Source: Candidatus Heimdallarchaeum aukensis (lineage in GTDB: Archaea; Asgardarchaeota; Heimdallarchaeia; Heimdallarchaeales; Heimdallarchaeaceae). From it: DNA of 64,000 bases. Location of the stretch: contig CP084166.1 of assembly GCA_021513695.1 (NCBI GenBank), forward strand, positions 2,656,001-2,720,000, read 5' to 3'. Below, piece by piece: positions 22,801 through 36,758 of the stretch (positions within the stretch are counted from its first letter, which is position 1; the number at the start of each line of letters is the position of its first letter). The translations under genes and the position numbers were made by a program. The notes below the pieces were generated by a model, which was not told where the DNA came from, searched no databases, and saw only the letters and a list, made by a program, of their open reading frames with translations.

Positions 22801-23365
22801 AATATCCTGGGTCATCTGGATTATATTCGTGTTGTTCCATAATAACAGGTTCATTTTTTTCCAAGTTGATCATTAAATGAACTTCTGTAGTCATTTCTTC
22901 CATGAAGTATCTGCTCTTTATCCTTGCAGGAAGATCTACAGATGACATAGAATGTAGTAGACACATCTTGGCTCCTAAACCAAATCTGCCTCTAGTTTGA
23001 ATTACTCCATATTTTGTTCCTGTTAATACTCTACCAAAAAGATTTGGAATCTCATGACCAGGAACACCTACACCGTTATCTCTACATGTTAACTGAAGAA
23101 AATCAAGATGTTTTTCTAACTGTTTATATCTGGTAATATCTAATAATTCATTAATTTCAGAACTTGATAACTTCCTTAATTCAATATATATTTCAGGGTT
23201 CACACCTAGTTTTTCTGCTGCATCTAAGCCATTCTCGACCAATTCTCTAACAGAGGTAAAAACAGCTCGCATCGAGTTGCCAAAACCTGCAATGGCCTTA
23301 TTTTCATTGAAGAAAGCAGCTGCACTCATTTTTCGTGTTTTATTTTCTTCAGCCACAAAATTCAC
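10811..23365 (-). CDS. top6B: giant DNA topoisomerase VI subunit B fusion protein (Top6B core + ~3,500-aa HhH-like repeat array + basic K/T-rich tail), 4,184 aa
   Basis: This is a single uninterrupted 12,555-nt ORF. The N-terminus is colinear with Top6B: FFNENKAIAGFGN..RAVFTSVRELVENGLDAA (Bergerat N-box), RDNGVGVP (G1), TRGRFGLGAKM (G2), HPFIVEAAIGYGGG and YRYANRIPLIFGAGNDV (transducer). The start is uncertain. The track's GTG 23365 lies inside the AAGGAGTG SD-like string, so GTG 23356 (8 nt after GGAG) or ATG 23329 are more plausible. Confidence 0.9.
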   Translation of the reverse strand: MNFVAEENKTRKMSAAAFFNENKAIAGFGNSMRAVFTSVRELVENGLDAAEKLGVNPEIYIELRKLSSSEINELLDITRYKQLEKHLDFLQLTCRDNGVGVPGHEIPNLFGRVLTGTKYGVIQTRGRFGLGAKMCLLHSMSSVDLPARIKSRYFMEEMTTEVHLMINLEKNEPVIMEQHEYNPDDPGYLHTSGTEISITFTGAWNLAKNSIKEYFKQLAIITPYASFTVVLPGDEEGTSETLVFQKVVDDMPDPPKVIQLHPFGCDITQFKAKIAATSAENLVDFLSKDFMGVRKEVAEEFFQILEIDPNKKPSDLTSKEIRRIVHEGFIKAYQEAKEIKRKRDRIFRFDAPQGDALSPLGAARLRKGLEKELEPEFVEAISRPPKAYSGHPFIVEAAIGYGGGVSKYAQQKGSTSVDNKIIYRYANRIPLIFGAGNDVITKVVSSLNWSEYGLTRQSDPLAIAVSIVSTKIPFPETSKEYISTVPEIEEEIRLALQQLGRRLKTFLSRAKRRKREHARLSRFVRSAPVVIDNLARILENEKIVYTNINKEKYKVAAALAHGAKKKIRNFVPLGTPIFELNVWCPDKYKKSCAKSDILTIGKFLSIPVSELAPILNLSKKEVSRIKQRTIYELDRSKLSPELPLKALTNKMIDKRFARQGTSSSFNEALYQRWIQNSYHYLATEATQLRLVEGLVERLIEDNKFKLINEVTKSQDGQETVELSIFIEEFKFNLETMSDYSELKEEFLYPDFNYIKTSYPNFSNKFKGLEDFIYKFNEPFSFKYDNDLTEMLIDYVKKVFSHVSEKFPDFLKVNITKMKPDWIDGYSKNAFHRRKIETIDNFLKTPTKDLLEIKELERSIYTRFFTILANSERSIPLNKLGLISTIDDNIRKNILDSLKSANIETLAQYANAKLRTLMKKELSVFVDSLLEESKFRILSHLNEVNKDLDLSHLKVISEKAEEKLLENKIFTSTSFLITPSKKLREMGLLKSEIARIKKKIGTPIPNFLSLKNKASKYEIYTVEDILYSQPENFEFKDEQTKKQYVSDYLLLRTPLIFAFPELNEKINVLNEIGVNCIGRFLIWSNKELSLVLNLNEQEIIRLKQSISANKITKNKERYKGNLKIIKKHFPRLVKQFNEQQTTIQELFYFYIEEELPSISDLLTKMNNFREFMNEDLIFLAKLAPTKSKAKSLNDALLKLKTKDVNTIRDFLQLTPVFIETEISKNKDKKILLELYDNINSKNLKDTDEFAEKVLLSHEIIDFYQFLQLPITRIKSLKLKDYEVLASKKIYSLHQFLNYSFDELSTILNFSKKNFDELINNFDVNRDGQPFYEKVSSGKYESIISFDFENSERFSPEEIRSLLVIGYNSIDQLFYLTHPYTFGAPIIKWGVIEKFKKLLRSPLTLVTWEKTTKKKILNEETKQEEEIEEIEITSLSHEQLNALRKTGIRRIIDFFLVSDETIASILKIDLEEAKKYKKNIRISETGTDISELDIFRPSIVEILETNNIFTIEDLYFSTQQEKWAIRTIPWEIVQNLKNVLNLRFKHLSDMLDPDIIKLLKKNKINTLLGFLLTSSKVLMERTGIPDERFDNIKRSLDLGEIFYFFSLPVYFLPNISFSQTEELRKAGILTIVDFVSTSSVKLSNILNITTKETKEIIDILTSQRIREEYEARAIYAYETRLFDKNEQRTLSRETIYSYEGFQSIQELFYCPDEVFIDRNSSIWRKVFTLKKILSLPLRIFQEISDYSLTIFNQNQITHLYHLIFILDSDLTDRTLFRTVSDYSSKLIDLRAYHYFDFLSATAYNKDFFSTILEDIEELTLLDVISSTDLIKTLSEFERQLAFEKCNITLIRSVFELPLGITPFLNLLSEDMRNKYFIITLGSLFELEFEENSPLLEIKNKLGEENSLDKLIGDLSIPISSLNLDVNLALPLSRSSITTLIDFYSTPTKKLSEISNETQKRINEIKENLSYSEIVELHKARSHPIMPSSLITETEISKLRDIGISDIETLYYAGVRMGASSILKQEKYREFKEILSGSITFLSFLSFEEIKKLELQDIHSVIDLSLFEKGQLSQILNNPIYDEFHIFDLLSLDELKEKRLRFAIPLENCPSITSEYVEKLHELGIYSIQDFISRMSEIRKSYPYLVNMNVFKEAKLYLSSVFFLDLELEQMLKLVYSGVGDILTFLTEDITTISLILDIPETEIIKIKENISVKKILNEVEEKGIKLESLALLSKRNLLSLQKLNKDTVQDLYGLCYQIKSFSEEFKENIDNFLSLCNSSVFRISNLSRFIKRSLAKNRILRVIDLFIVREKDLKKIFNSIPEELKDKRKGNISLSSGIPILEEDKELISTLTDFKFNLSKASFEDIFGLVPEYLLIFSESEKIEKASSIAKLEELIYGLCLNIFSISDMSLDVKLDLWKNGVKNIIELLTLSSEEKRTIPSNARSEIIRFVKEFSKEKLVNLIPKDHLDILSNKSDKLDIKTSPDVINLLDLLPQPFVISSQILFSNSNSLTSMVKYPIIWLDKFSQIDQLEFLRNLMKEDKKLILDLLLLPPDNIDIELAEYVVSSLSDFQIPKWAIKLRDVKFLSKQQKLYLKKINIEYLDQLLCLQDYSSEDKNLSSIKKTLSLFGTTPISFLSSLSLQQNSILFENKINTILEFLSIPSVSLGKLFEIEYKEINTIKLQISKRNIVSELKLYGIDLNLLPSLTEKELTKEGKLPLIKKREAKEGTSPKTIKKPEVSTIEYLNENEIYSLIQLFYHDVDQLEINKDEKEKLIVNIPILFTPIKTIERILGISTKNINESLKNKKTYYDYLHIPIHLWETLLPKLDKAIKENNSLFIRNLSSLQFSTLDIANLKLNKSLVQKLYSLGVFSIEYLYYFPEEFFLSLPDSYIEEIKDIRMKLSRNINNLPILTLDTIKSCYNKKLVYIIDVISSIQNLDDAMVDEILSSLSMLKNLHLESFIPPLGSYEEKAMKLGYLSYQELLGDVNLKDKSIFAEISPYLLANIRYLGLEEKIETNLKKGGTYTIADLLLIPYKTVAKESRIKLDQILKLRSSIKIDKIKKTIEKDKPNHFVDLPFLSEKEKSTLLSYGFYSFSDLEENSIYNWLYDIKKIEKIRTKIKQILDTSILFLSSINSLKFEEIETKYFDNNLFTIRDLVKNDQLVSFGDYNTIISNLIKDKKKTLSLTLKTKDFLGTINSKNLFSKNIEIPEISNIIDFISVLYMNKEFLTKTGLEILNLLNSSVSIITDFTEKEVEKLNEHKIETLKDLLIKPISYSSFLSEKQLEKVNHVLSTLNVKTIKKLRDKRVQLSNIMLFDSETKKKLLKYYTVIDDLVYDLSKKHCKLRSKLRNNVQKILNKSIYLISFPQLPLENWLKLLSKVSTLQEMLLLSKPALAKIISTNISEVDTFLSKITISRISNPPALKTNIVLQDFDIAELRENGIKNYLDLFENTDVVSNLSPSLRTKIGLLQKLSSRYFDEKLPDLSFQQLVFFNIHHDSLKVNSQVSKRLLDIYSFIFSKPTKFEEKLNLPEKDELKVQYTLESLLLLEKYDKKQFDKITSSFPETITLHFNEYLQFLNRHVILLVNESFENKEKFKQYGNLTIGDLILKPRYQLSQIIDDNRLIRQIRNLSLETLRTLASKLTPIPETILDKTELDVLSQGHIFSIEEAYVFNIVSKSKTSKRWKITEKLRLRIEQKIYSLPLVFESKETFRLLLKSNTKTVYDLLLLNKSSNITVLKNLLSQIPFHDLDSLASQSNSKLIDFVNDKEIINELNENDINSLGELIALFEEKNISDLSMKVKDVLSCFRASLALFIRQKNILFQLAKRGYEQVYDLFFLQNIDDLQIKFTEKQRAEFTELLNSLNMTKVKEQLELNSYRIKDLGLFSDTEKSILENGGYSHIIHLSVSDKRIKEQTELSIRQISTLKELLSYPIYSFYALMQDKPNSIFKLYHKQKYSLWDVFNTKINELTEITNITERQLRNYFATLTPQSLKIAKKGKTQIVKSTPFMSSEIISKLKEIGISSFEELIFADNRTKRKDIFKNKNVQKLLKLIEEPIEKLDVKQQIRNKLNSLGINTIGEFIAYPTSQLEGKLEMTYNDIKKIKQTIPFVKTTTTKAKRPSTTTKKTTTTKTKRPSTTTKKTTTTKTKRPSTTTKKTTTSKRTKQTTLDEISADTKIETKKRSTK
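10883..11035 (-). repeat. 45-bp tandem repeat encoding the (KRPSTTTKKTTTTKT)n basic tail of the giant ORF
   Basis: Plus-strand copies at 10911-10955 and 10956-11000 are identical 45/45. Flanking copies (11001-~11035 and ~10883-10910) are diverged. The protein reads TTTTKAKRPSTTTKKTTTTKTKRPSTTTKKTTTTKTKRPSTTTKKTTTSKRTKQTT. Confidence 0.9.
11048..21730 (-). repeat. protein-level array of degenerate ~60-70-aa helix-hairpin-helix units (RNA polymerase alpha-CTD-like / RadA N-domain-like) within the giant ORF
   Basis: The recurring pattern is P-h-x-x-L.....L...G-I/V-x-T/S-h-x-D/E-h-h...S..-L..IL.h...E...I. Examples are LRKAGILTIVDFVSTSSVKLSNILNITTKETKEIIDIL, LNEIGVNCIGRFLIWSNKELSLVLNLNEQEIIRLKQSI, LRKTGIRRIIDFFLVSDETIASILKIDLEEAKKYKKNI, LKKNKINTLLGFLLTSSKVLMERTGIPDERFDNIKRSL, LKEIGISSFEELIF and PIEKLDVKQQIRNKLNSLGINTIGEFIAYPTSQLEGKLEMTYNDIKKIKQTI (last unit, nt 11048-11203). 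I recognised roughly 35-45 units by eye. The repeats are degenerate at the DNA level. aa ~640-890 look non-repetitive and aromatic-rich. Confidence 0.6.
21731..23365 (-). other. portion of the giant ORF corresponding to a canonical Top6B (GHKL ATPase, H2TH, transducer), aa 1 to ~545
   Basis: The motifs listed for the parent CDS apply here. The last recognisable Top6B-like helix is EIRLALQQLGRRLKTFLSRAKRRKREHARL (aa ~491-520, nt ~21806-21895). The domain boundary is approximate. Confidence 0.75.
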
Positions 23366-23503: not shown

Positions 23504-26440
23504 TTATTTTTTCTTGCGGAACAATTGTTGTTTTACTGGTTCTGGATTAATTGTTAGAGAAGAAACAATTATACCAAGTGTTAGAATAAATAATGCTGCA
23601 AAAGCCCCTCCAGTTCTGTAAGAGTCAGCTCTTCCGATTATTGAGAGGAACTCATCTTCTATTTGTTTAGCAAGGTTATCTGTGGAATATAGGATATCTT
23701 CGAGCCAGAATAAGTTTGCCATGTCTGCAGTAAGTTTTGGATAAGTTTGATGCCATGTTCTGTATTTATATTGAATGTCTTCAGTATCTTCTACAACATC
23801 TTCATCAAGGAATGGATAGTACTCAATATATTGTCCTGCATAAGTGTTGTATTGTACTCTATCTCTTCGTTCAAGAATTGTACCAGTTGTTGGGTCAGTG
23901 AAGATCTGTTGGAAGTGGAATTCATCACGTATAGAACCTGGGAAGGTGTGAGTGATATAAATATCGTCATTCTTCCAATCGGTACCATGAATTTGGTTCC
24001 ATCTTCCTACATGGACGAAACTCTCGTTTAGGTAGTCTGCATACTCTTGCCAGTATAAATCGTATTGATCGACTTGTAGGTAAGGTTGTTGTGTATCTGC
24101 ATAATAAATGTAAGCATCTCTACCATACATGATTGTTTTATCTCTGGCTGAATCAAATATAAATGGACGATAGAAGTACTCAACCCATCTTTGTGTAAAT
24201 CCTCTTTCTGTGTTTGGAGGTAGGACATCTAATCCATAAGTTTCACTAAATGGTTCAAACTGTGTAGTCTTCATTGGCCAATTGTTTAATTGAACAAAAG
24301 AAGCTTTATCCCAAATTTCAACGAATGTTCTTAATTCGTCTCTATGTAAGACATCACTGAATGAACCTGAAGAATAGGTTATGTGTATTAATCCTTTTGA
24401 ACCATCTGCAAGGTAAATGTTTTCACCAGAAGCATAAATATCGTATGCTTCTCCGTCACTATCATAAGTTGCTAAACTTGTTAAGGAATTGACGTTAGAT
24501 GCATCAACTACAATCAAACCATTTTCTCCAGCAGTGAGATATAGCAGATCGTTGTTTTGGTATAGGTTGAAGAATCCACCAGAAACACCAAAGTCATATG
24601 TTCCTATTTGAGTTAAGGTGTTTCCACTAATGGAATAAACAACAAGTCCTAAGGTGTCATCAAGAACATACAGAGTTGTTCCATCTAATAATAACTGAGT
24701 TGCTCCAGTAAGAGAAACGTTTGCTAATGATTCTAATGTAACTGCATCAAAAACTTCTATTCCTCGTCCCTGTTCAACAGCATAGGCTTTTGTTCCATCA
24801 GTTACAACAGCTGTAACAGGAGATTCAGTCTCTTTAAGTGTGTTTAGTGATATGTCTCCTCCATTAGTAGTTGCTTTAGCTAATCCATATTGACCCATAG
24901 CGATGAGCATAAAAGTCTTTGTTGGATTATATTCAAGGTCTAAAGCGTTTATATCTCCTCCATTGGTCCAAACTGTAATTTGGTCAATTTCTGTAAGATC
25001 AGACATATCTAATGAAACTATTCCTTTTTCTCCTGCTGCTACGTATGCAAAATCGCCATATAAACTAGTTTCAAAAGCGATGTCTCTGAAGAAATAACCT
25101 TGTAATCTGTATCCACCAATACCCAAAAACAAGGGGCTGGATGTGTTTACTATTCTAAATCCTCTATTTCCTTCAATAACATAAGCGAATTCGTCATTCA
25201 TTTCAACCTTATAACTTTGAGATTCTTCGAAGGTTGGTATGTTGGCTATTCCAATGATTTCATCAACTTTTGTTATATTATCTCTTCCTGTTTTAACAGC
25301 GTATAATAGGTCTGTTGAAGGATCAACTGAGTCAACTGCAAATGACTGATTAACTAAGAAAGGATATTTTTTTCCGCCGAGGAGTGGATCTTCAACTCCT
25401 GTAACCCATTCTAAAGCTGTTCTTTCACATATGTATGATATCTTGTTTTCATATAACCAGTTTAAAGCAGGTGTACCAGTAAGATATCTGATGTATGCAG
25501 CAAAAGATTGAGCTTGTTCTAGTTCCTCTGGTGTATCGATGTCATAAATTTCTGCTAACTTTTGAGTTACATTAATTGTGAGGATTGAGGGGTCATAGCT
25601 TAACCCTTGGACTAAATCAAGGAAGTACTTCATAGAACCGGCTTCTCCAGTGAATAGAGAATAATCATGACCATCTGCAGTAATTGCATTAAAGAGAATT
25701 TTGTAGGCTGTAGCGCTATCAAAGTTAATATCAGTGTGGTCAGGACGTGAGTTGATCCACATGTGAGGGCTATATTTGATACTATAAATTAGGTCGTTAG
25801 TTTGAGCATATGCCTTATTTAGCACAAGTTTAGCAATCTCACTGTTGTTGTATCCTAAACCTTCTAACTCGCTTCGAATCATAAATCCTGCAACATAAGC
25901 TTGTAAACCATATTCTGAACCATTACCAAAATTTTTCACATAATATGGCCAGAGGTAGTTATAATTGATGATTTTCTCATTACCTGTTAATGTTGAAAGT
26001 GTTTTATTTAAAGTGTATTGTTTCCGTTCGGTGTAAACAACATAATCATTTTCTTCACTATAATCAATTACAAATTTCTTCACTTCTAAGTCAAATACTA
26101 GTTTTCCTGGAATACCTATGTAAGTAATTGGAGTGTTCTTGTACAAGTATGCGTTTCTATCACTTATGTTGTAAAATTCTATATACGTATGAGCGTAATA
26201 ATTACTATCATCAGAGTATTTAGCAACATACATCCAATCAGAGTAATTGTCGCTTCCTCCTTCATAAGGATCAAGATCGTCTTCTGTAATCATACCATAC
26301 TCATTTAGCTTCTCTTCTATTTGATTATTGATTTTAATAGTTTGAATTGGTAACATTACGCCAACTGCGATAGCTGATCCAGAAGTTAAAATTAAAATAA
26401 ATATTCCTAACATTACACGGAATTTTTTCTGCATAGTCAT
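23504..26440 (-). CDS. LVIVD-repeat (beta-propeller) surface protein with N-terminal signal/anchor and C-terminal TM anchor
   Basis: The N-terminal hydrophobic segment is VMLGIFILILTSGSAIAVGVML, and the C-terminal one is FAALFILTLGIIVSSLTI followed by a basic tail. The repeated motifs are FAYVIEGNRGFRIVN, FAYVAAGEKGIVSLDMSD, AYAVEQGRGIEVFD, LYVLDDTLGLVVYSI, LYLTAGENGLIVVDASN and IYLADGSKGLIHI. Confidence 0.6.
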   Translation of the reverse strand: MTMQKKFRVMLGIFILILTSGSAIAVGVMLPIQTIKINNQIEEKLNEYGMITEDDLDPYEGGSDNYSDWMYVAKYSDDSNYYAHTYIEFYNISDRNAYLYKNTPITYIGIPGKLVFDLEVKKFVIDYSEENDYVVYTERKQYTLNKTLSTLTGNEKIINYNYLWPYYVKNFGNGSEYGLQAYVAGFMIRSELEGLGYNNSEIAKLVLNKAYAQTNDLIYSIKYSPHMWINSRPDHTDINFDSATAYKILFNAITADGHDYSLFTGEAGSMKYFLDLVQGLSYDPSILTINVTQKLAEIYDIDTPEELEQAQSFAAYIRYLTGTPALNWLYENKISYICERTALEWVTGVEDPLLGGKKYPFLVNQSFAVDSVDPSTDLLYAVKTGRDNITKVDEIIGIANIPTFEESQSYKVEMNDEFAYVIEGNRGFRIVNTSSPLFLGIGGYRLQGYFFRDIAFETSLYGDFAYVAAGEKGIVSLDMSDLTEIDQITVWTNGGDINALDLEYNPTKTFMLIAMGQYGLAKATTNGGDISLNTLKETESPVTAVVTDGTKAYAVEQGRGIEVFDAVTLESLANVSLTGATQLLLDGTTLYVLDDTLGLVVYSISGNTLTQIGTYDFGVSGGFFNLYQNNDLLYLTAGENGLIVVDASNVNSLTSLATYDSDGEAYDIYASGENIYLADGSKGLIHITYSSGSFSDVLHRDELRTFVEIWDKASFVQLNNWPMKTTQFEPFSETYGLDVLPPNTERGFTQRWVEYFYRPFIFDSARDKTIMYGRDAYIYYADTQQPYLQVDQYDLYWQEYADYLNESFVHVGRWNQIHGTDWKNDDIYITHTFPGSIRDEFHFQQIFTDPTTGTILERRDRVQYNTYAGQYIEYYPFLDEDVVEDTEDIQYKYRTWHQTYPKLTADMANLFWLEDILYSTDNLAKQIEDEFLSIIGRADSYRTGGAFAALFILTLGIIVSSLTINPEPVKQQLFRKKK

Positions 26441-28007: not shown

Positions 28008-29414
28008 TTAATGTTTTCCCGCAAGTACTTCATTGGTGTTGAATACTTGGATTGTATTAGTTTTTCTTGGTATGCCTAAATAGCTTCCTCCTACTAATAC
28101 TACAGTGTCATCATCCTTCAAATGTTCCTCATTAATTAATCGTGAAATACAAGTGTAAACTAGTTGATCATAATCTGTTTCATATGTGTGGAAAATAGGC
28201 TTCACTCCCCAATAGAGTTGTACTCTTCTTAATGTCCTCTTTTCGGGTGTAGAGGCAAATATTGGTAAGTGCAATCTATATTTTGACACCATTTGCGAAC
28301 TATAACCTGTACGAGTAAGAGCAATTATAGCTTTAGCAGAAAGATTCTGAGCAATATCGACAGCTGCTTTTCCTATAGATTCTTCTATGTTTTTAGCTTT
28401 ATACCTTGGAATAAAAGTGAGATCGCTTTTTTCTGCTTCTCTAATAATTTGATCCATTACGTTGATTACAGTAATAGGATGAATTCCTGTAGCAGTTTCA
28501 GCGGACAACATCACTGCATCAGCACCATCAAAAACAGCATGGGCAACATCACTAGCCTCAGCACGAGTTGGGATAGGTTCAATTGTCATTGATTCGAGCA
28601 TCTGTGTAGCAACGATCACTGGTTTTCCAAGTTCCATTCCCATTTGAATATATTGTTTTTGTAAAACTGGCACTCTCTCAGGGCCTATTTCAATTCCTAG
28701 GTCTCCTCTTGCAACCATTAATCCATCACAATTCTTCATGATGGACTTAACGTTATTCACTGCATCAATATGCTCAATCTTTGCAATTATGGGAATATAT
28801 TGAGATGTTGAGGATTTTATTATCTCTTTTATCTTCTTAATGTCTTTGACATCTCTTACAAAACTTATGAAAAGATAATCGACTTCTAAATCACAAGCCT
28901 TTTCAATATCCTTTATGTCTTTTTTAGTTGGCACATGTAAAGTTAAATTTGAATCAGGAACATTCACTCCTTTTCTTGTTGATATTGTTCCGCCATCTCT
29001 AACTACGCATTTAATTAAACTCCCATCAATTTCTAAAACCTCTAGTTTTACTAAACCATCATTAATAAAAATAGGTGAACCCACTTTCACTTCTTTGTAT
29101 AAATCTTTGTAATTAACTGAAAAGTAATTTTTTGTACTTATTATTGATTCATCATTGGTTATTGTTACCTTTTCACCAATTTCTAGTGAAACTGCCTCTT
29201 TAAATTTTCCAATACGTATTTTGGGACCAGCTATATCAATTGCTATTGCAATATTAGGACAATTTTCTCTAATTCTATTAAAAATTGTTTCATGTTCGTT
29301 GTGAGTTCCATGAGAGAAATTTAATCTAGCTACATTCATTCCAGCTTTTTCCATCTTTTTCAGCATTTCTGCAGAATCAGATGATGGCCCAATAGTGCAA
29401 ACAATTTTAGTCAT
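28008..29414 (-). CDS. pyk: pyruvate kinase
   Basis: The motifs are MTKIVCTIGPSS, ARLNFSHG, IAKIEH and MVARGDLGIEIG, followed by a C-terminal regulatory domain. The ATG at 29414 is preferred over the track's TTG at 29420. Confidence 0.9.
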   Translation of the reverse strand: MTKIVCTIGPSSDSAEMLKKMEKAGMNVARLNFSHGTHNEHETIFNRIRENCPNIAIAIDIAGPKIRIGKFKEAVSLEIGEKVTITNDESIISTKNYFSVNYKDLYKEVKVGSPIFINDGLVKLEVLEIDGSLIKCVVRDGGTISTRKGVNVPDSNLTLHVPTKKDIKDIEKACDLEVDYLFISFVRDVKDIKKIKEIIKSSTSQYIPIIAKIEHIDAVNNVKSIMKNCDGLMVARGDLGIEIGPERVPVLQKQYIQMGMELGKPVIVATQMLESMTIEPIPTRAEASDVAHAVFDGADAVMLSAETATGIHPITVINVMDQIIREAEKSDLTFIPRYKAKNIEESIGKAAVDIAQNLSAKAIIALTRTGYSSQMVSKYRLHLPIFASTPEKRTLRRVQLYWGVKPIFHTYETDYDQLVYTCISRLINEEHLKDDDTVVLVGGSYLGIPRKTNTIQVFNTNEVLAGKH

Positions 29415-29637
29415 TCTCAACTTTAATCGTCTAAGTATTCGTATTTTTACTTAAAAGATTATGCTTGTGTTCTTTCTCCAAATTTGAAAAAACAACCTTT
29501 TTTTGCAAGTGTAACTGTTTCAAAGAATTGATTTTCCTATCTAGAGGACCAATCAGTTATTTTTTTTTAAGAAATCCTAATTTGTTATTGTTTCTCTTGC
29601 GAAAGTTTAAAAATGTAAATTTGCTCTTTTCATTGAA

Positions 29638-30948
29638 ATGGAAGAAAATTCAAAAACTCTTGTTAGTGGGATTAAAGCAAATTTAGTATATCCAGAATCT
29701 AAAGTAAAACCAGTCTTTAATTTTGAAAATATGATAGTTGAACATTATAAACGATTTCCACGAACTGCAGTTTTAATCGAAAATCCAAAATATGCAAAAG
29801 CTCTAATGAACCCTCTAAAATCATTTTATCTAGTACCTATTGCCATTTTCAAAGTCAAATTTAATACTGTTCTCTCAATGAAATTTTGGAATTATATCGC
29901 TTTGTGGTTATACATCCTTATTGTTTCTATTCCTAACTCTGTTTTTATGTATATAACGTTTAGTAGCAACAAAATTTTGGGAGACATAACTTTTTCAGTT
30001 ATTATACCCATGTTGGTTTCATCCCTAGTAGCTCTTTGGTATTTGAAATTTACTCATGATGGTTTCTTTGGATTGATTATAGAGAAAAAAGTTGAATGGT
30101 TAGAAAAGCCTGTAAAAGAATATTATGATAAATATTATGATAAAAAATTTAGCTTAAATATTGTTTTAGTTGTTTTAAGTGTCTTAACATCATTAGGAGT
30201 GGGAATTCCTGTATTAATTTATGCTTCAAGTCAAGGTTTACAATCTGCAATTATATTTGGAGTTATAGGAATGATTTGTAATTTCGTAGTTTTTTATATT
30301 TTCTACTTATCTTTACAATATACTATATTAAACACCAAAATCTATTCTAAAGTATTAAACGCAATAAAAAGTAGAATTGATATCTATCTCAATGAGTATG
30401 GAACTTTGTTAAATAGTGAAAATTACGAAATTATTTGGGCTCTAGGAGATACCCCTGGAAGATCAATAAGGCAGCTTGAAAATATACCCGTGGCTGGAGT
30501 GTTATCTGCGTTAATAGTAACAATTGCCATGTTGATGGGAACAATTAATCAAGCAGTCCTTGGAGTAGTCAAAGGGAATATGCCAACAGTGAATGTATTC
30601 AATTCGCAAATGAGTCTTAACGCAATAATAGCTGCAATCTCCCTAGTTATAGCTATCATAATAGTACTAATTGTTGTTCTTCCATTGTATATCTTCAGTG
30701 GAAAAATGAAGAAATTCAAAATTAAAGCTTTAATAGAACTTGATAACTATATTTTTGCAAATGTAATGGAATTTGAACAACGCTATTCTGAACTTGCAAA
30801 GCAAGAAACAGTAACAATATTTGCTCTCAGAGAGTATATATCGGGTATGAGAACAATTCCTATTTCAGCAGCAAAGATTATCAAAAGTTTAACAGCTGTT
30901 GCAGTATGGTTTGTAAATGTCCGAAAAATAATTAGAGCGTTTAATTAA
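29638..30948 (+). CDS. polytopic membrane protein of unknown function (upstream partner of the tubulin/FtsZ-like gene)
   Basis: It is 436 aa with many long hydrophobic segments, for example IALWLYILIVSIP, ITFSVIIPMLVSSLVALWYL, IVLVVLSVLTSLGVGIPVLIYA, IIFGVIGMICNFVVFYIFYL and IIAAISLVIAIIIVLIVVLPLYIF. I recognised no family motif. Its stop lies 10 nt before the next ATG. Confidence 0.5.
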   Translation: MEENSKTLVSGIKANLVYPESKVKPVFNFENMIVEHYKRFPRTAVLIENPKYAKALMNPLKSFYLVPIAIFKVKFNTVLSMKFWNYIALWLYILIVSIPNSVFMYITFSSNKILGDITFSVIIPMLVSSLVALWYLKFTHDGFFGLIIEKKVEWLEKPVKEYYDKYYDKKFSLNIVLVVLSVLTSLGVGIPVLIYASSQGLQSAIIFGVIGMICNFVVFYIFYLSLQYTILNTKIYSKVLNAIKSRIDIYLNEYGTLLNSENYEIIWALGDTPGRSIRQLENIPVAGVLSALIVTIAMLMGTINQAVLGVVKGNMPTVNVFNSQMSLNAIIAAISLVIAIIIVLIVVLPLYIFSGKMKKFKIKALIELDNYIFANVMEFEQRYSELAKQETVTIFALREYISGMRTIPISAAKIIKSLTAVAVWFVNVRKIIRAFN

Positions 30949-30958
30949 GTGAGGAAAA

Positions 30959-32098
30959 ATGTCGTTCTTAAAGAAACTTAGAAAAAAATCAATAGATATC
31001 GCAGTAATTGCTGTTGGTGACGCAGCTTGTATAATAGGTGCTAAATTTATCCAAAATTTAAAAGAAAATAAGATTAATGTCAAATCTCTGGCAGTGAACA
31101 CAAAGAACAACTTTGGTTCTAAGATTTCTGATCCTTATAATGACAAGTTTTGGTTTGCTGAGCAATATTCTTCTACAAATCGTAATTTAGAATTTGCAAG
31201 AAAGCTTTTAGAAGAAAGAAAAGAGGTTCTAACTGATAAATTGAGGAATGTTGTCTTTTATCGTTTAGATGATAAAAAACGTAAAGAGAAACTCGCTTTA
31301 CATCTTATAATTGCTAGTGGAGGAGGAACTGGTTCAGCAGGTTCAATGATAATAAGTAAAATAATCAAGGATATAACTGGCGAATCTCCAACAATAATAT
31401 TTATTGTTCCTGAAAAGCATGAACCTTCTATTGTTCAATATAACACAGCAACAGCTTTGTTCTATCTAGGATTTGATAGTCTAGGTCCTAATTGTCCTAC
31501 TATTCTTTTTGACAATGAAAAATTAATTTCAGTTGATGAAACTTTGGATATTAAAAAGGCATTGGACTATTGTAATAACTATCTAGCTGATACTCTCTCT
31601 ACTACTATTTTAGCAGCTCTGCAAGAATCATCTCATGAAGAATTTAATGCTGGTTTAAATGATTTCTTCAAATCTTTTAGTTCTGAAGCAAAAGGAATAG
31701 GTGTTATTATCTCTGTCGATAAAACTTTTGAATCGTTAGAAAAAGCACAAAATATTAGGTTTTCTGACATATTCTTCAAAGAATTAGAACTAACATCAAG
31801 TTTAACTGCAGACATTACTAAAGCAAGGTTGGGCTTCCTATCTATTATCGCTCCTCATTCTTATCAGACAACTTTTGAAACCAAAAAGATAGTAAAAAGA
31901 TTCGAAAAAGGGTCAATTAAAGTCTCATTAACAGCTTTAGAAGAGCCTATACTTTTAATACGCGGTGTAATAACGGGGTTGCATCCTGATTTCATTGAGA
32001 GATTTTGGGATATTTTTGAACGGGCTAGAGATTCGAGAAAAGAAATTCTAATCCTAGAAGAGCAAATAAGAAACATGAAATTAGTTTTTTCCAACTAA
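30959..32098 (+). CDS. divergent FtsZ/tubulin/CetZ-superfamily GTPase homologue
   Basis: The tubulin/FtsZ signature reads LIIASGGGTGSAGSMIISKI (GGGTGS at nt 31319-31336). After it come IIFIVPEKHEPSIVQYNTATAL (T5/H5-like; compare tubulin VVEPYNA), TILFDNEKL (compare FtsZ vIpNDkL) and NAGLNDFFKS (T7-like NxDF). The N-terminal IAVIAVGDAACIIG stands in place of the GxGxxG T1 loop. Confidence 0.55.
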   Translation: MSFLKKLRKKSIDIAVIAVGDAACIIGAKFIQNLKENKINVKSLAVNTKNNFGSKISDPYNDKFWFAEQYSSTNRNLEFARKLLEERKEVLTDKLRNVVFYRLDDKKRKEKLALHLIIASGGGTGSAGSMIISKIIKDITGESPTIIFIVPEKHEPSIVQYNTATALFYLGFDSLGPNCPTILFDNEKLISVDETLDIKKALDYCNNYLADTLSTTILAALQESSHEEFNAGLNDFFKSFSSEAKGIGVIISVDKTFESLEKAQNIRFSDIFFKELELTSSLTADITKARLGFLSIIAPHSYQTTFETKKIVKRFEKGSIKVSLTALEEPILLIRGVITGLHPDFIERFWDIFERARDSRKEILILEEQIRNMKLVFSN

Positions 32099-32152
32099 TT
32101 TCTTATTTGTGACCGTGATAAACCTTATTAATTTAATGCAAGTTTTTCATTA

Positions 32153-35125
32153 ATGAATAGTCTAAATCCAAAGAAGGTAGGTAAAAAGCTCCAAAGGAGA
32201 ATTAAAGGAAAAGTAGTTTGGGACAAAGTTTCTAGATACTTGTATTCCACCGATGCTAGTATCTATAAACTTATGCCCTTGATTGTTGCTCAACCTAAAT
32301 GCACAGAAGATGTCCAAGAAATAGTAAAATTCTGTAATAAACACAAACTTTCTATTCATCCTCGAGGTGCAGGAACAGGGTTGGGAGGACAAGCTTTAGG
32401 AGAGGGCGTGGTAATAGATTTTGCAAGATTTATGCGTAACATAATCGAAATTAACCTTGAAGAAGACTATGTCTGGACTGAGGTAGGAATAAAGGGTGCC
32501 CCCTTACAAAAAAGATTAGGGGAATATAATAAATACATTCCTCCAGATCCAAGTAGTCAAGATTATGCTACCTTGGGTGGAATGATTGCAAATAATGCTT
32601 CTGGCTCTCATTCTGTGAAATATGGTGATTGTGATAAATGGGTAGAAGAATTGGAAGTTGTTCTTGCAGACGGAAATGTAATTCATACTAAAGAATACGA
32701 TATTGAGAGTGAAGAGTTTAAAAGAATATTAGAAAAGGATACACTAGAATCATACATATATAAAAACCTGTTAGAACTTTGGAAAAAGAATGAAGAAAAA
32801 ATAAAGAAAGCTTATCCTCCTGTCCCACATAATGCTACAGGATATGAACTTAGAAAACTGATTTACGACGGAAAAATAAATCTTACAAGGTTATTTGTTG
32901 GTTCTGAAGGTACATTTGGGGTTATAACAAAAGCAAAAATGAGAATCAAGACCAAACCAAAATACAAAGTTCTTTCAACAGTCTATTTTGATGATTTAGT
33001 AAAAGCAGGAAAGGCAATTCAATATATTTTAGAACAAGATCCAGCAGCCATTGAATTACTAGGTAAAAAACTTCTAAATATGGCAAGAGAACGATATCCT
33101 TCTCTAGATAAGAAACTACCTAAAGAATTAGATACGATGCTTTTAGTTGAATTTGAAGGAGATGACTTAGAAGAATGCAAAAAGCTAACTGAAATTACAA
33201 AAAAGAAAGTTACTCAAACTGAAAAACTAGCTTTTGAATTTCTCTCGGCAGAAGATCCTGAAGAACAAGCTAATCTATGGGAAGCAAGAAAGTCTGCTGT
33301 GCCACTTTTGTATAAAATTAAAGGAGATAAGAAAATAATTGCATTAATTGAAGATGCAGTAGTTCCTCCAGAGCATCTAGCAAGATATGTAACAGAATTG
33401 GAGAAAGCTTGTAAAGATCTGGGAGTTGAATTTATTGCATATGGACATGCAGCAAAAGGATTACTACACAATCGCCCTCTAATAGATATGAAAAACCCTG
33501 AAGATATAAAGAAAATGCAAAAGTTAGCAGATAAAAGCTTTGAACTAGTTAAGGAGCTTGGGGGCGCAATAAGCGGTGAGCATTCAGATGGAAGGATAAG
33601 GGCGAAGTATATAAAACCACAATATGGAGAAGAAGTTTTTAATATTTTTAGAGAAGTAAAAAGAACCTTTGACCCTGAAAACATGTTCAATCCTGATATT
33701 AAAGTAATGGCTAAAGAAGATGTTCAAATTAGTAATTTGAAATTTGGAGAAAAATACAAGCCCAAAGCTCATAACACAATTCTAAACCTTGGTTCAGAAG
33801 AATATCAAAGAATCATTGAGACATGTATTGGTTGCGGAAAGTGTGGTATCGACGAACCAATTCTAGTTATGTGCCCAGTATATAAAGGTAAGCCTTACGA
33901 GCACACTTTAACTAGAGGAAAGAATAACATACTCAGAGGATATATTGAAGGAGAATTTACTCTTAAAGAATTACTAGAAAACGATGTCTTTGAGTTTATT
34001 ATTTACAATTGTGTGAATTGTCAGCAATGTATGTATGATTGTCCAAGCGAGGTAGACACAGCTATTTTGATGACAGAAATGAAAATACAATACATGGAAT
34101 ACCATAAACCTACATTGAAAAACCTATTTTCAACAATCAAATTACACAGAACTTTCCATTGGACTTATCAATATTTACGTAATTTTTCACTTGCTAAAAT
34201 AGATCTTATAGGGAAATTGGCATCGATATTTTCTCCTTTCTCTAATTGGATGACTAGTTTTATACTTACTAGATTCGGAATGCATTTGACAATAGGTATC
34301 GATTATAGGAGAAAGATGCCAGCTTTCCAAAGAAAGACATTCGTTAAATGGTGGAAGAAGCATCAAAAAACAGCTAATGCTGAAGAACCAAAGAAAGAAA
34401 AACTAAAAGTCGTTTATTTCCATGGTTGTTCAGCAAATACGATTACACCTGAAGTAGGAAAATCAACTGTTGAATTGTTAGAAAAACTAGGTGTAGAAGT
34501 TGTTGTACCTCCACAAAAATGCTGTGGAAGTCCAGCTTATTCTTATGGTGCTAAGAGTGTTCTAGATAAAAATGTTAAATTCAATTTAGATAGCTTAAGT
34601 CAATATTTAGATGATGGTTGTGATGCAATTGTTACTAGTTGTACTAGTTGTTCTCTTGCTCTTAAAAGTGAATATAAACATATAACTAACAATGAGAAAG
34701 CATTGAAGGTTTCTGAAAAAACCTTTCTTACTACTGAATTTGTTGATAAACTATTAAAAGAAAATAAGCTGGATGTTGAATTCAAGCCAGTTAAAGCTAA
34801 AGTACTCTATCATACATCATGCCACTTAAAAGCACAAAGAGAAATTACAACTATTTCTTTTGATCTCCTCAATAAAATACCAGAACTCGAAGTGGAAAAA
34901 GGTCCAAATACTTGCTGTGGTGTTTCTGGAAGTTGGGGAATGAAAAAAGAAAATTACTACGCTTCAATGAAAATCGGACATTGGCTTTTTGATTCTGTAA
35001 AACAAGAAGATATTGATGTTGCTGTCACAGATTGCCCAACTTGTAAAATGCAAATTGAGCATGGAACATCTAAAGAAGTTGATCATCCAGTGATTCTTCT
35101 TTACAAGTCAATAACTGTTAAATAA
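32153..35125 (+). CDS. FAD-linked oxidase fused to Fe-S/CCG domains (YdiJ / GlcD-GlpC-like D-2-hydroxyacid dehydrogenase family)
   Basis: The N-terminal FAD-binding PCMH-type region reads HPRGAGTGLGGQALG. The central ferredoxin motifs are CIGCGKCG and CVNCQQCMYDCP. The C-terminal CCG-type domains read FHGC...KCCGSP...CTSC and HTSC...TCCGVSG...CPTC. It is 990 aa. Confidence 0.7.
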   Translation: MNSLNPKKVGKKLQRRIKGKVVWDKVSRYLYSTDASIYKLMPLIVAQPKCTEDVQEIVKFCNKHKLSIHPRGAGTGLGGQALGEGVVIDFARFMRNIIEINLEEDYVWTEVGIKGAPLQKRLGEYNKYIPPDPSSQDYATLGGMIANNASGSHSVKYGDCDKWVEELEVVLADGNVIHTKEYDIESEEFKRILEKDTLESYIYKNLLELWKKNEEKIKKAYPPVPHNATGYELRKLIYDGKINLTRLFVGSEGTFGVITKAKMRIKTKPKYKVLSTVYFDDLVKAGKAIQYILEQDPAAIELLGKKLLNMARERYPSLDKKLPKELDTMLLVEFEGDDLEECKKLTEITKKKVTQTEKLAFEFLSAEDPEEQANLWEARKSAVPLLYKIKGDKKIIALIEDAVVPPEHLARYVTELEKACKDLGVEFIAYGHAAKGLLHNRPLIDMKNPEDIKKMQKLADKSFELVKELGGAISGEHSDGRIRAKYIKPQYGEEVFNIFREVKRTFDPENMFNPDIKVMAKEDVQISNLKFGEKYKPKAHNTILNLGSEEYQRIIETCIGCGKCGIDEPILVMCPVYKGKPYEHTLTRGKNNILRGYIEGEFTLKELLENDVFEFIIYNCVNCQQCMYDCPSEVDTAILMTEMKIQYMEYHKPTLKNLFSTIKLHRTFHWTYQYLRNFSLAKIDLIGKLASIFSPFSNWMTSFILTRFGMHLTIGIDYRRKMPAFQRKTFVKWWKKHQKTANAEEPKKEKLKVVYFHGCSANTITPEVGKSTVELLEKLGVEVVVPPQKCCGSPAYSYGAKSVLDKNVKFNLDSLSQYLDDGCDAIVTSCTSCSLALKSEYKHITNNEKALKVSEKTFLTTEFVDKLLKENKLDVEFKPVKAKVLYHTSCHLKAQREITTISFDLLNKIPELEVEKGPNTCCGVSGSWGMKKENYYASMKIGHWLFDSVKQEDIDVAVTDCPTCKMQIEHGTSKEVDHPVILLYKSITVK

Positions 35126-35214
35126 TAAAATACAGCAAATCTGATTTTTTCTTTTTCATTTTTTTTCAAATAGCAAAGAATTTATAGTTCAATCTGAACA
35201 TATTGTTGTTAAAC

Positions 35215-36180
35215 ATGAGCGAAACAGAACCTTGTCCTTATTGTTTTAGAGAAATTAAAAAAGGGGTAAATTTTTGTAAATATTGTGGCTCTGCAATAAA
35301 ATATTGTCCAGAATGTAATTCTGCAAATAAAGCTGAAAGCCTTTTCTGTAGTTCTTGTGGAAAAGATATTAGAGATATCATCGCGAAAAAGAGAGAGACA
35401 GAGCCTCCAATCTCTCATCGCGTTGTTGGTCCAACTGCAAGTCAAAAAATAGTTATGTGGCCTCCTCCAGGCCAATTTTTTCCAACACAACCAAAATATA
35501 GACCTTATCAAACACCAGAGGAACAATTATTTGGAACAGCAGATAAACAAGAGTCTTTTCAACCAAAAATCGTTTATCCTTATTCGAAGGTAGCAATACT
35601 CGGGTTCTTGAGAGGTCCAATCTCAACTTCAAAAGTTTTTTCTTCTGTTATTGAAGCATTTGCTTATGGACTGTCTCTCATTGCCGCAGGAGTGTTAATC
35701 ATAAGTTTAAGTTTTCTTTTTCTCCAAACTTTGATCTTACCAATAATAGGATTGCTGTGGGGAGGAACTTTAATTCTATCTGCTCCTTTTTTCGGTATGT
35801 ATTTTGTTACTTCAAGCTGGTTATATAAAGCATTTAAAATTAAAAAACCTGTTAGCGATATGACTATATTGTGGAACTATCTGTTTAGTATAATTTTCTT
35901 TTCCTTTATTTCGCTCATTTTATTACCTTTGCTCGCAACAAACACTCTATTTGCTACAATTTTTGGGATAATAGCTTTAATTGTTATCTTTGCTGTATTA
36001 ATTGTGATCCCACTAAAAGCTTTTCTTATTGACTTAGCCTACGTAAAAGCAGCTGTAATGGAACGAGAGAGTCAAAAAGATAAAGAAGAAACTTCAGATG
36101 AAGATAAAACTCAAAACGATAAAGAGGAAGTTGAAGAAACAAAAAAAGAAGCTTATAAAATAGAAAAAAAGGAAAGTTAA
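35215..36180 (+). CDS. zinc-ribbon membrane protein of unknown function
   Basis: The N-terminus has a double zinc ribbon, CPYC..CKYCG and CPEC..CSSCG. Four or more hydrophobic helices follow, then an acidic/Lys-rich tail. The ATG at 35215 is preferred over the track's TTG at 35203. Confidence 0.5.
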   Translation: MSETEPCPYCFREIKKGVNFCKYCGSAIKYCPECNSANKAESLFCSSCGKDIRDIIAKKRETEPPISHRVVGPTASQKIVMWPPPGQFFPTQPKYRPYQTPEEQLFGTADKQESFQPKIVYPYSKVAILGFLRGPISTSKVFSSVIEAFAYGLSLIAAGVLIISLSFLFLQTLILPIIGLLWGGTLILSAPFFGMYFVTSSWLYKAFKIKKPVSDMTILWNYLFSIIFFSFISLILLPLLATNTLFATIFGIIALIVIFAVLIVIPLKAFLIDLAYVKAAVMERESQKDKEETSDEDKTQNDKEEVEETKKEAYKIEKKES

Positions 36181-36758
36181 ACTAATCTTTGAACCAATTT
36201 TACTGTCTTATTATCTTCAGCAATATCCACTATTCCATTATTCCTCAAGTCATAAAGAGCTTTCATAACTGCTGCAGGAGTTATTCCCGTTGTTTTTACT
36301 ATCTCATCTCTTGTCCATTCTTCTTTATCTGTGCCTTGCAATAATAACAGAATTTTGGTGTGAGGATTCGCTGCAAAGACATTTTCAAATAGTATAGAAT
36401 AAATTGCAAGTAGCTCTTCAATATCCATTTCTTTAGCTTTTTCAGCAGCTAACTCTTCATACAATGTTCTAAATTTTGACATAGATTCTTCAAGATTATT
36501 TAACTTTTCTTCATATTCTTTGTTTTTTTGCTCTAATTCATTGACTTTCTCAAGTTTTTCTTTAGTCTCAATGGCTAATTTTTCAAGTTCAGCTTCCTTC
36601 TCTTTTAACTCTTTAGAGTATCTTTTATTTGCTTTCTCTAAATTTTCTGCATATTCAATTAGACCAAGTAAAAGGACGGGTAATTGCTCAAAGTTATCTT
36701 TAATAGAAAAATAAAGTTCTTTAAATTCCTTTAAAGTATTTGAATCTAAGTTTGTCAT
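36177..36758 (-). CDS. coiled-coil protein with C-terminal winged-helix (MarR/TrmB-like) domain
   Basis: The N-terminal half is heptad-like and E/K-rich. The C-terminus TRDEIVKTTGITPAAVMKALYDLRNNGIVDI is a typical wHTH recognition region. Confidence 0.4.
   Translation of the reverse strand: MTNLDSNTLKEFKELYFSIKDNFEQLPVLLLGLIEYAENLEKANKRYSKELKEKEAELEKLAIETKEKLEKVNELEQKNKEYEEKLNNLEESMSKFRTLYEELAAEKAKEMDIEELLAIYSILFENVFAANPHTKILLLLQGTDKEEWTRDEIVKTTGITPAAVMKALYDLRNNGIVDIAEDNKTVKLVQRLV

Follow-up and report, generated by a model that had tools for sequence, protein, structure and literature searches.

We describe two adjacent genes at positions 29,638 to 32,098 of a 64,000-nucleotide stretch of the genome of Candidatus Heimdallarchaeum aukensis (GenBank contig CP084166.1, positions 2,656,001 to 2,720,000; hereafter the window). 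They encode a 436-residue polytopic membrane protein, M, and a 379-residue GTPase of the tubulin/FtsZ superfamily, B; a second tubulin-like paralog, A, is encoded nearby on the opposite strand (Table 1). We propose that A, B and M form a conserved, chromosomally encoded three-component system in which tubulin-like proteins are coupled to the membrane, with M acting either as an anchor or as a regulated channel, and we assign this reading a probability of roughly 0.55. Asgard archaea, and Heimdallarchaeia especially, are the prokaryotes used to reconstruct the origin of the eukaryotic cytoskeleton and membrane systems. The locus contributes a tubulin-superfamily branch that is distinct and conserved, in the form of a system with two paralogs and a dedicated polytopic membrane protein. 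We found no paper describing the A-M-B arrangement.

B is a divergent member of the tubulin/FtsZ superfamily

The initial annotation of this region had described two open reading frames (ORFs) separated by 10 nucleotides, and both are present as described. The GGGTGS signature by which the second ORF had been recognized proved genuine and not fortuitous. B matched the Pfam model Tubulin (PF00091) with an E-value of 3.2e-7 and 31.3 bits over profile positions 2–187 of 190, and its orthologs bear PF00091 in precomputed annotation. An AlphaFold2 (AF2) model of B (predicted local distance difference test score, pLDDT, 76; predicted template modelling score, pTM, 0.80) displayed the full two-domain architecture, consisting of an N-terminal GTPase domain, helices H7 (residues 198–221) and H8 (233–241) and a beta-rich C-terminal activation domain. 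Foldseek searches with this model returned CetZ, FtsZ, TubZ and gamma-tubulin at a probability of 1.00 and E-values of 6e-13 to 1e-8, CetZ being the best match (E 6e-13). A conserved terminal helix (347–371) carries the motif ARDSRK. Based on these results we concluded that B is a genuine, very divergent tubulin/FtsZ-superfamily protein.

The motifs of B are those expected of a nucleotide-binding and catalytic subunit. The T1 loop, AVGDAACIIG, had been called atypical, which holds for the window genome and not for the family: the family consensus GxGNAGCxIG follows the tubulin-like pattern GxxGxxIG, Gly20 alone is invariant, and the window sequence is a local variant with the changes G18A and G23A. 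B also carries IVPEKHEPS, QYN and LFDNEKL, the last with a tubulin-like DNE motif. The initial annotation had further placed a lysine at the catalytic aspartate position and suspected an altered GTPase activity. This assignment turned out to be a four-residue register error. The stretch N230-A-G-L-N-D235-F pairs with the canonical N-x-D-x-x-D/E, so that Asp235 occupies the catalytic acidic position. In the A/B family alignment Asp235 aligns with the glutamate of the A-type sequence D-L-N-E-F, in the AF2 model it lies at the start of H8, and in the profile-profile alignment it pairs with the second aspartate of the CetZ sequence D-A-S-D. It is kept in 28 of 29 B-type sequences, and Lys238 is variable across the family (K/Q/S/A/E/D); with Asp235 present, an altered GTPase activity through a lysine-for-aspartate exchange is unsupported. 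By its sequence, B thus has the complete motif set, comprising a T1 variant, T4 (GGGTGSAG), T6 (DN) and T7 with Asp235.

The N-terminal 15 residues of A and B are basic, with a net charge of +6 in most Heimdallarchaeaceae copies and +4 in B of the window. A membrane-targeting helix at this position was considered and found unsupported apart from this basic composition; the hydrophobic moments are unremarkable.

M and B are strictly paired and A belongs to the same locus

We compared 13 loci, namely the window, seven further loci from Heimdallarchaeaceae (L001–L003 and L005–L008) and five deep loci (L004, L023, L032, L033 and L034) whose B proteins share only about 28% identity with B of the window. 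In all 13, M is located directly 5' of B on the same strand, with a spacing that ranges from a 1-nucleotide overlap to an 11-nucleotide gap, and M orthologs are recognizable across the deep split at 27% identity (E 1e-34). The gene pair is thus conserved in relatives, and given this strict adjacency the earlier proposal that the membrane protein is a dedicated partner of the GTPase is reasonable. The proposal of a two-gene unit was too narrow. The M-B pair is strict, but A belongs to the unit as well. In five of five deep loci the genes A, M and B are contiguous, with A encoding 414–453 amino acids and either overlapping M or ending at most 2 nucleotides before it; both junctions of the operon overlap or almost do so. 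In four Heimdallarchaeaceae arrangements A lies within one to three genes of M-B; it is located behind the pyruvate kinase gene in the window, after B in L007, and directly divergent from M in L002. Judged by this gene order, the ancestral operon is A-M-B, and A left the operon in Heimdallarchaeaceae.

Close homologs of B (53–94% identity, about 379 amino acids) and of M (45–100% identity) bear adjacent locus tags and occur almost solely in metagenome-assembled genomes (MAGs) labelled Heimdallarchaeaceae, Heimdallarchaeota or 'Asgard group'. M of the window is K9W45_11860 of Candidatus Heimdallarchaeum aukensis (100% identity). Scanning the DNA of genome contigs for the pattern PPR...ARDxRK gave 23 matches, one of them real (L023, from a Heimdallarchaeota MAG) and the remaining 22 chance bacterial sequences.

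The nucleotide site of A or B has decayed in different lineages

A of the window was identified by its similarity to the A-type protein of L004 (BLASTP, E 5e-10), which itself scores 41.2 bits on Pfam Tubulin, above the cut-off. The degenerate A group aligned in hhalign with active A at an E-value of 5e-32 and with B at 1.6e-15, and the B profile retrieved the degenerate orthologs P0135 and P0175. These comparisons identify the window ORF as an ortholog of A of the deep loci. No match below E 0.1 was obtained for it in Pfam or NCBIfam, because its motifs are gone: T4 reads AGNDGFLFG, T1 is unrecognizable, and the asparagine of the T6 DN motif is lost. At the T7 acid position the degenerate A proteins of Heimdallarchaeaceae have D, N, S or T, depending on the member. 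The full two-domain length is kept in the window protein despite the loss of motifs, and from its motif state we consider it a pseudo-GTPase. Within Heimdallarchaeaceae, identity among A proteins is 26–34% compared to 55–59% among B proteins, indicating that A has evolved about twice as fast as B.

Other lineages display different states. In L004, L032 and L033 the sites of both proteins are canonical, with G[SA]GGTGVG, DN and DLNEF in A and GGGGTG or GAGGTG, DN and xD[FL] in B. In Heimdallarchaeaceae the nucleotide site of A has decayed and that of B is intact, whereas the lineage of L023 and P0116 shows the reverse: B reads SSDGFST, and A reads GAG[AS]TGVGG and keeps the T7 glutamate. Such reciprocal decay in different lineages suggests that A and B work together in the manner of alpha- and beta-tubulin; as circumstantial evidence, it is what would be expected if both paralogs served a common task within a single assembly. 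With GTP sites lost reciprocally, the lineages also offer a natural experiment on how tubulin-like pairs turn asymmetric, as alpha/beta-tubulin did.

The C-terminal helix motif of A-type proteins is AEDVRV, compared to ARDSRK in B. Active A proteins of the deep loci (e.g. L033 5238-6557 and L034 4989-6350) have in addition a charged tail at the C-terminus, conserved as …KIDKLxDGEEIEVKxxEEL…RRGE, which is missing from B and from the degenerate A proteins of Heimdallarchaeaceae. By analogy to the C-terminal peptide of FtsZ, this tail may serve to bind a partner.

Profile scores place A and B on a separate branch

When 1.84 billion representative proteins were searched exhaustively with the B profile, only 123 matches were obtained at E≤1e-3. 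Among these were about 12 B-type clusters (E 1e-187 to 1e-41) and about 16 A-type clusters matched over their full length (E 1e-34 to 1e-11); the remainder were CetZ and TubZ-like proteins, matched chiefly in the GTPase domain. In hhalign, A and B aligned with each other at an E-value of 5.7e-41 (score 306). The corresponding values against CetZ were 1e-21 (score 161) for B and 7e-17 for A, and both proteins reached about 1e-15 to 1e-17 against TubZ-like proteins. Against PDB, a profile of 13 B orthologs matched RepX/TubZ (4ei7) at 3.7e-8, CetZ at 6e-7 and 3e-6, OdinTubulin at 6e-5, AtubA at 6e-4 and Heim-beta-tubulin at 1e-3. Among the tubulins of known structure (Odin, Atub, Heim and Btub), matches of the B profile reached no better than E 6e-5 to 6e-3 and extended over only about 110–130 residues.

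B scored 15.6 bits on the FtsZ equivalog TIGR00065, whose cut-off is 295.2, and at E≤1 it matched none of the C-terminal Pfam models FtsZ_C, CetZ_C (PF21011), TubZ-like_C (PF22453) and Tubulin_C (PF03953). The nearest genuine CetZs, by comparison, score 75–183 bits on CetZ_C. Also unmatched at E≤1 was Pfam Tubulin_2 (PF13809), which we take to be the FtsZl-1-type model. The profile checks called for by the initial annotation thus left PF00091 as the matched model, with CetZ_C, TubZ-like_C and PF13809 unmatched, and its view of a divergent GTPase distinct from FtsZ1, FtsZ2 and CetZ is upheld. A neighbour-joining tree of 112 sequences (200 bootstraps) recovered B as monophyletic in 179 of 200 replicates. 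The tree was saturated, with mean distances above 3, and gave no clean A+B clade, degenerate A and three long-branch outgroups being interleaved. Because of this saturation, the placement of A and B rests on the profile-profile scores. These scores make A and B mutual closest relatives on a branch of their own. B lies outside FtsZ, CetZ, TubZ, the true tubulins, FtsZl-1 and Asg.Tub.

M is a polytopic membrane protein with long cytoplasmic helices

The initial annotation had counted eight or more hydrophobic helices in M, which is an overcount. Alignment across lineages and hydropathy agree on six strong transmembrane (TM) helices, at approximately residues 83–105 (TM1), 113–133 (TM2), 175–198 (TM3), 204–226 (TM4), 285–307 (TM5) and 328–350 (TM6), accompanied by a possible N-terminal re-entrant segment (62–80) and a weak C-terminal helix. 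The C-terminus consists of a cytoplasmic helix (384–402), a break at the conserved Pro408, and a weakly hydrophobic helix (411–435). Within the latter, a putative seventh TM helix (411–431) has a mean hydropathy of 0.4–1.3 and contains 1–4 K/R. The distribution of K/R favours an N-terminus inside. Loops rich in K/R, presumably cytoplasmic, are near-constant in length (41, 58–60 and 60–62 amino acids), and those on the opposite, outer side are short or variable (7–17, 5 and 20–54 amino acids). All conserved motifs are found on the K/R-rich side, namely FxFE, NTxIY, DTPGxSI..L.nIP, KFxxKALxELDxYI and LReYIxxM.t.P.

In the AF2 model of M (pLDDT 73, pTM 0.68), TM4 to TM6 run far past the membrane as long helices (202–252, 277–310 and 327–382). 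The long TM4–TM6, which form a cytoplasmic anchor domain, a last helix split into TM7a and TM7b, and short extracellular loops are features of the seven-transmembrane ion channels (7TMICs), a superfamily defined further by exactly seven TM helices with the N-terminus inside and the C-terminus outside. Foldseek comparison of M with PDB structures gave a best E-value of 0.57, which is not significant, and TM-scores of 0.40–0.44 to BmGr9. We consider that the fold of M probably resembles that of the 7TMICs, the superfamily of insect odorant and gustatory receptors, a resemblance and not an established membership. The earlier statement that M has no recognizable motif therefore stands for its sequence and not for its predicted fold. 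No informative sequence match was found in Pfam, NCBIfam, PADLOC, PHROGs or PDB. A match to SLATT_4 of NCBIfam (E 1.4e-3, 18.5 bits against a cut-off of 55) was judged spurious, because the Pfam family ASFV_J13L recurs in merely 4 of 26 M orthologs and no other Pfam family is shared more widely.

A proposed membrane-coupled tubulin-like system and its alternatives

In the three-component system that we propose, B would form GTP-dependent protofilaments. M would be co-transcribed and translationally coupled with B, and its cytoplasmic helical extensions would dock or organize the B (or A/B) polymer at the membrane, or else the polymer would control M. A, ancestrally the first gene of the operon and a canonical GTPase, would survive in Heimdallarchaeaceae as a non-catalytic capping, nucleating or adaptor partner. 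Since A of the window has neither a pocket nor a conserved T7 acid, hydrolysis would have to occur at B-B contacts. Polymerization, co-assembly of A with B and contact of M with the filament might together serve to shape or position membranes or to regulate a channel. The three proteins are small and suited to expression, GTPase and polymerization assays, and electron cryo-microscopy.

Several points weigh against this system. The single-sequence score of B on PF00091 is marginally below the gathering cut-off of 33 bits, and confidence in the T7 loop of its model (residues 226–228) is low. The T4 loop is degenerate in P0131, a representative of the A type, as well, which leaves unproven that every pair keeps at least one live site. 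No A gene was found within 8 kb of M-B in the AB_125 loci (L005 and L006). Adjacency within one archaeal class could partly be inherited synteny, an objection that is tempered by the persistence of the A-M-B order across a split at which B identity is about 28%. We infer the physical contact between A, B and M. Finally, strictly alternating A-B filaments would give no hydrolysis in Heimdallarchaeaceae; therefore, B homopolymers must be assumed in this family.

The alternatives differ mainly in what they take M and the filament to be. M may primarily be a tetrameric ion channel of the 7TMIC type, with A and B as its cytoplasmic regulators or clustering scaffold; the module would then serve in signalling or ion flux, and would be no cytoskeleton for shape or division. 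This possibility, which overlaps with a membrane-coupled tubulin-like system and does not exclude it, is the main rival but rather improbable. The architecture of M fits that published for 7TMICs (N-terminus probably inside, short outer loops, long TM4–TM6, split last helix), and Heimdallarchaeota 7TMICs with eukaryote-like long TM4 and TM5 have been reported (Himmel, Moi and Benton 2023). That study makes no mention (0 occurrences) linking 7TMICs to tubulin-like genes. Against a 7TMIC, none of the Pfam families and PDB chains of this superfamily is matched by the sequence of M, its structural matches in PDB are not significant, its model is of only moderate quality, and the putative TM7b is weakly hydrophobic with its K/R residues. 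Should M be a 7TMIC homolog, its strict association with tubulin-like GTPases would, as far as we could find, place prokaryotic 7TMICs in a functional context for the first time. An equally doubtful extension combines both ideas into an ancient, lineage-specific A/B heteromer, one partner of which was, as in alpha/beta-tubulin, independently and repeatedly made non-exchanging or non-catalytic, physically coupled to a eukaryote-like 7TMIC channel. If true, this would be a cytoskeleton-gated or -positioned ion channel, and a receptor-channel fold otherwise seen chiefly in eukaryotes would have existed alongside its own filament partner in Asgard archaea. It is less probable still that A and B form no filament and are GTPase switches or assembly factors for the insertion, folding or turnover of M. 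Tight translational coupling of B to M would suit such a function, and repeated motif loss in one paralog shows that part of the system can do without catalysis. Yet B and active A retain the entire two-domain fold with its C-terminal activation domain, and they keep the T7 acid, a catalytic residue useful only at a subunit-subunit interface; to our knowledge every characterized member of the tubulin/FtsZ superfamily polymerizes.

Another alternative is suggested by public annotation: one NCBI entry lists the AB_125 ortholog as 'Tubulin-like protein CetZ', and several orthologs are called 'cell division GTPase FtsZ' at JGI. B would accordingly be an ordinary CetZ/FtsZ-type paralog for cell shape or division that lies next to M incidentally. 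CetZ is indeed the best outgroup of B in both Foldseek and hhalign, but the similarity between A and B is far above that to CetZ, the TIGR00065 score is far below its cut-off and none of the C-terminal models CetZ_C, FtsZ_C and Tubulin_C is matched; together with M-B adjacency in all loci compared, down to about 28% identity of B, this renders the explanation very improbable. The least credible alternative is a DNA segregation system like those of TubZ and PhuZ, derived from a plasmid, virus or integrated element. It draws on the best PDB profile match, which is RepX (the TubZ-like protein of pXO1), and on a weak match of the L004 A-type protein to the PhuZ PHROG (E 5e-4). Against it, the chromosomal neighbours are housekeeping genes (pyruvate kinase, Topo VI, FAD-oxidase) that recur from lineage to lineage, neither a TubR-like DNA-binding adaptor nor a TubZ-like_C match was detected, viral contigs contained no close relatives, and GC content is uniform with no compositional anomaly. 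Proteins of the window had no match in PADLOC or among the PHROGs. From sequence and gene content, we concluded that the A/B/M module is not mobile, viral or defence-related.

Comparison with known systems

CetZ (PDB 3zid, 4b45, 4b46) is the outgroup whose profile best matches B, nearly over its full length (residues 14–365), and shares with B the tubulin-like motif FDN and the DxxD register of T7; the C-terminal helices of the two are homologous. B differs from it by the missing CetZ_C domain, by its occurrence as one of two paralogs, A and B, on either side of a membrane protein, and by the C-terminal helix motifs ARDSRK (B) and AEDVRV (A); B occurs in Heimdallarchaeia, and CetZ is chiefly a family of Euryarchaeota (PMC9871819). 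Alpha/beta-tubulin, BtubA/B and the Asgard AtubA/B likewise comprise two adjacent tubulin-superfamily paralogs, and the asymmetric evolution of the nucleotide site and T7 in A and B is reminiscent of the N-site/E-site asymmetry of heterodimeric tubulins, in which one of the two nucleotide sites is non-catalytic (PMC13394414). However, the similarity is remote (E 6e-5 to 1e-3 to OdinTubulin, AtubA and Heim-beta-tubulin), Tubulin_C is missing, a membrane-protein gene lies between the paralogs, and A loses the whole T4 loop, which goes beyond a T7 glutamate-to-lysine change; an A-B heterodimer is only putative. TubZ/RepX and PhuZ provide the best PDB sequence-profile match of B (4ei7), with a similar length and a long C-terminal helix. 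In contrast to these, B is chromosomal, has no TubR or centromere and no TubZ-like_C, and has a membrane partner in place of the DNA adaptor.

FtsZ, together with FtsA and ZipA in bacteria or with SepF as the archaeal membrane anchor (PMC8178401), represents a superfamily filament with a specific partner that holds it at the membrane. FtsA, ZipA and SepF are peripheral or single-pass proteins, whereas M is polytopic and has no similarity to any of them. FtsZl-1 resembles B as a divergent FtsZ/tubulin protein with a conserved multi-gene neighbourhood and a predicted action at the membrane; according to Makarova and Koonin 2010 (PMC2875224), its system comprises a vWA protein together with a distinct GTPase and with proteins of the OmpA family. 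The vWA, GTPase and OmpA genes are missing from the neighbourhood of B, and B keeps the C-terminal activation domain. Asg.Tub, like B, is an orphan Asgard tubulin-like family with a unique C-terminus and uncharacterized neighbours (Santana-Molina et al. 2023, PMC9871819). It consists of four CetZ-like proteins from Thor and Heimdall lineages (KXH77455.1, OLS30664.1, OLS26264.1 and PWI48967.1; PMC9871819), whose motifs GIGECGSN and FGGGTGCGG are unlike T1 and T4 of B. In hhalign the B profile reached only E 7e-5 (score 38, probability 63%) against the N-terminal 194 amino acids of PWI48967.1. To the data of that study, the AB_125 genome contributed only an FtsZ (PMC9871819). The 7TMIC superfamily (insect Or/Gr, DUF3537 and PHTF) differs from M by the lack of a sequence-level link and by the weakly hydrophobic seventh TM helix of M.

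Layout of the locus and signals for transcription and translation

The features of the locus are compiled in Table 1. A purine-rich GCGAAAG precedes the candidate TATA box TTTAAAAA, the centre of which is located about 28 nucleotides 5' of the ATG of M; the position of this candidate implies that the M-B transcript is leaderless or near-leaderless. M ends with TAA at 30946-30948 and the ATG of B follows at 30959 after the 10-nucleotide spacer. The GAGG site within this spacer suggests translational coupling of M and B on a single transcript. Directly after the stop of B, the T-rich stretch TTTCTTATTTG is a candidate oligo-T terminator for the M-B unit. A is found 1.7 kb from M-B, beyond the pyruvate kinase gene and across the intergenic region from which M-B diverges.

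Table 1. Positions of the A, M and B genes, motifs and putative signals in the window.
Feature	Position	Strand	Basis or remark
A, degenerate tubulin-superfamily paralog, 421 amino acids	26673..27938	-	BLASTP, hhalign, motif table
Candidate archaeal TATA box TTTAAAAA	29606..29613	+	Read from sequence; putative function
M, polytopic membrane protein, 436 amino acids	29638..30948	+	
GAGG, Shine-Dalgarno-like site	30951..30954	+	4 nucleotides 5' of the ATG of B, within the M-B spacer
B, divergent tubulin/FtsZ-superfamily GTPase, 379 amino acids	30959..32098	+	Pfam PF00091, AF2, Foldseek, hhalign
B T1 loop AVGDAACIIG, residues 18-27	31010..31039	+	
B T4 signature GGGTGSAG, residues 121-128	31319..31342	+	
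B T7/H8 motif N230-A-G-L-N-D235-F	31646..31666	+	Asp235 codon 31661-31663
T-rich stretch TTTCTTATTTG	32099..32110	+	Directly 3' of the stop of B; read from sequence

Neighbouring genes

Directly downstream of A, the window encodes a 978-amino-acid LVIVD-repeat protein of the beta-propeller type with hydrophobic segments at both ends (23504-26440, -). The gene always occupies this position next to degenerate A (window, L001, L002 and L007), and its product may be a lineage-specific extra partner. In the deep loci a protein of about 660 amino acids with a long C-terminal coiled coil (L004 2404-4383, L032 1615-3627, L033 2840-4822 and L034 1164-3179; 35–39% identity among these loci) is conserved beside pyruvate kinase and A-M-B. 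The window encodes no detectable homolog of it, and the LVIVD protein, considered as its counterpart, was rejected as it shows no similarity. The pyruvate kinase gene (28008-29420, -, in the window) also adjoins the A-M-B or M-B genes in L001, L004–L007 and L032–L034; its synteny is kept across about 28% B identity, with L002 and L003 as exceptions.

On the other side, directly 3' of B, a 990-amino-acid fusion protein is encoded (32153-35125, +) that combines FAD_binding_4 and FAD-oxidase_C with one 4Fe-4S dicluster domain and a pair of cysteine-rich CCG domains; this FAD-linked oxidase is located downstream of B in L002 as well. It is followed by genes for a double-zinc-ribbon (DZR) protein (35203-36180, +) and a coiled-coil protein of about 190 amino acids (36177-36758, -), both of which recur a few genes from M-B in L001, L002, L005 and L007. 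The coiled-coil protein has CCDC39-like matches in L001 and L007.

Farther upstream, a 4184-amino-acid ORF (10811-23365, -) begins with DNA topoisomerase VI (Topo VI) subunit B (HATPase_c and Topo-VIb transducer, residues 38–518) and continues into an extension of about 3600 amino acids with helix-hairpin-helix-type matches (RAD51D_N, RNA_pol_A_CTD). A typical Topo VI subunit B has roughly 500–600 amino acids and is far shorter. Topo VI subunit A (9395-10801, -) directly follows this ORF, and the giant subunit B gene (4170–4206 amino acids) is also present in L001, L002 and L007. Genes for OrfB_IS605/Cas12f-like TnpB are located a few kb from M-B in L001 (12489-13748) and in L005 and L006 (about 13633-14883); absent from the window, they represent local mobile-element insertions in otherwise syntenic regions.

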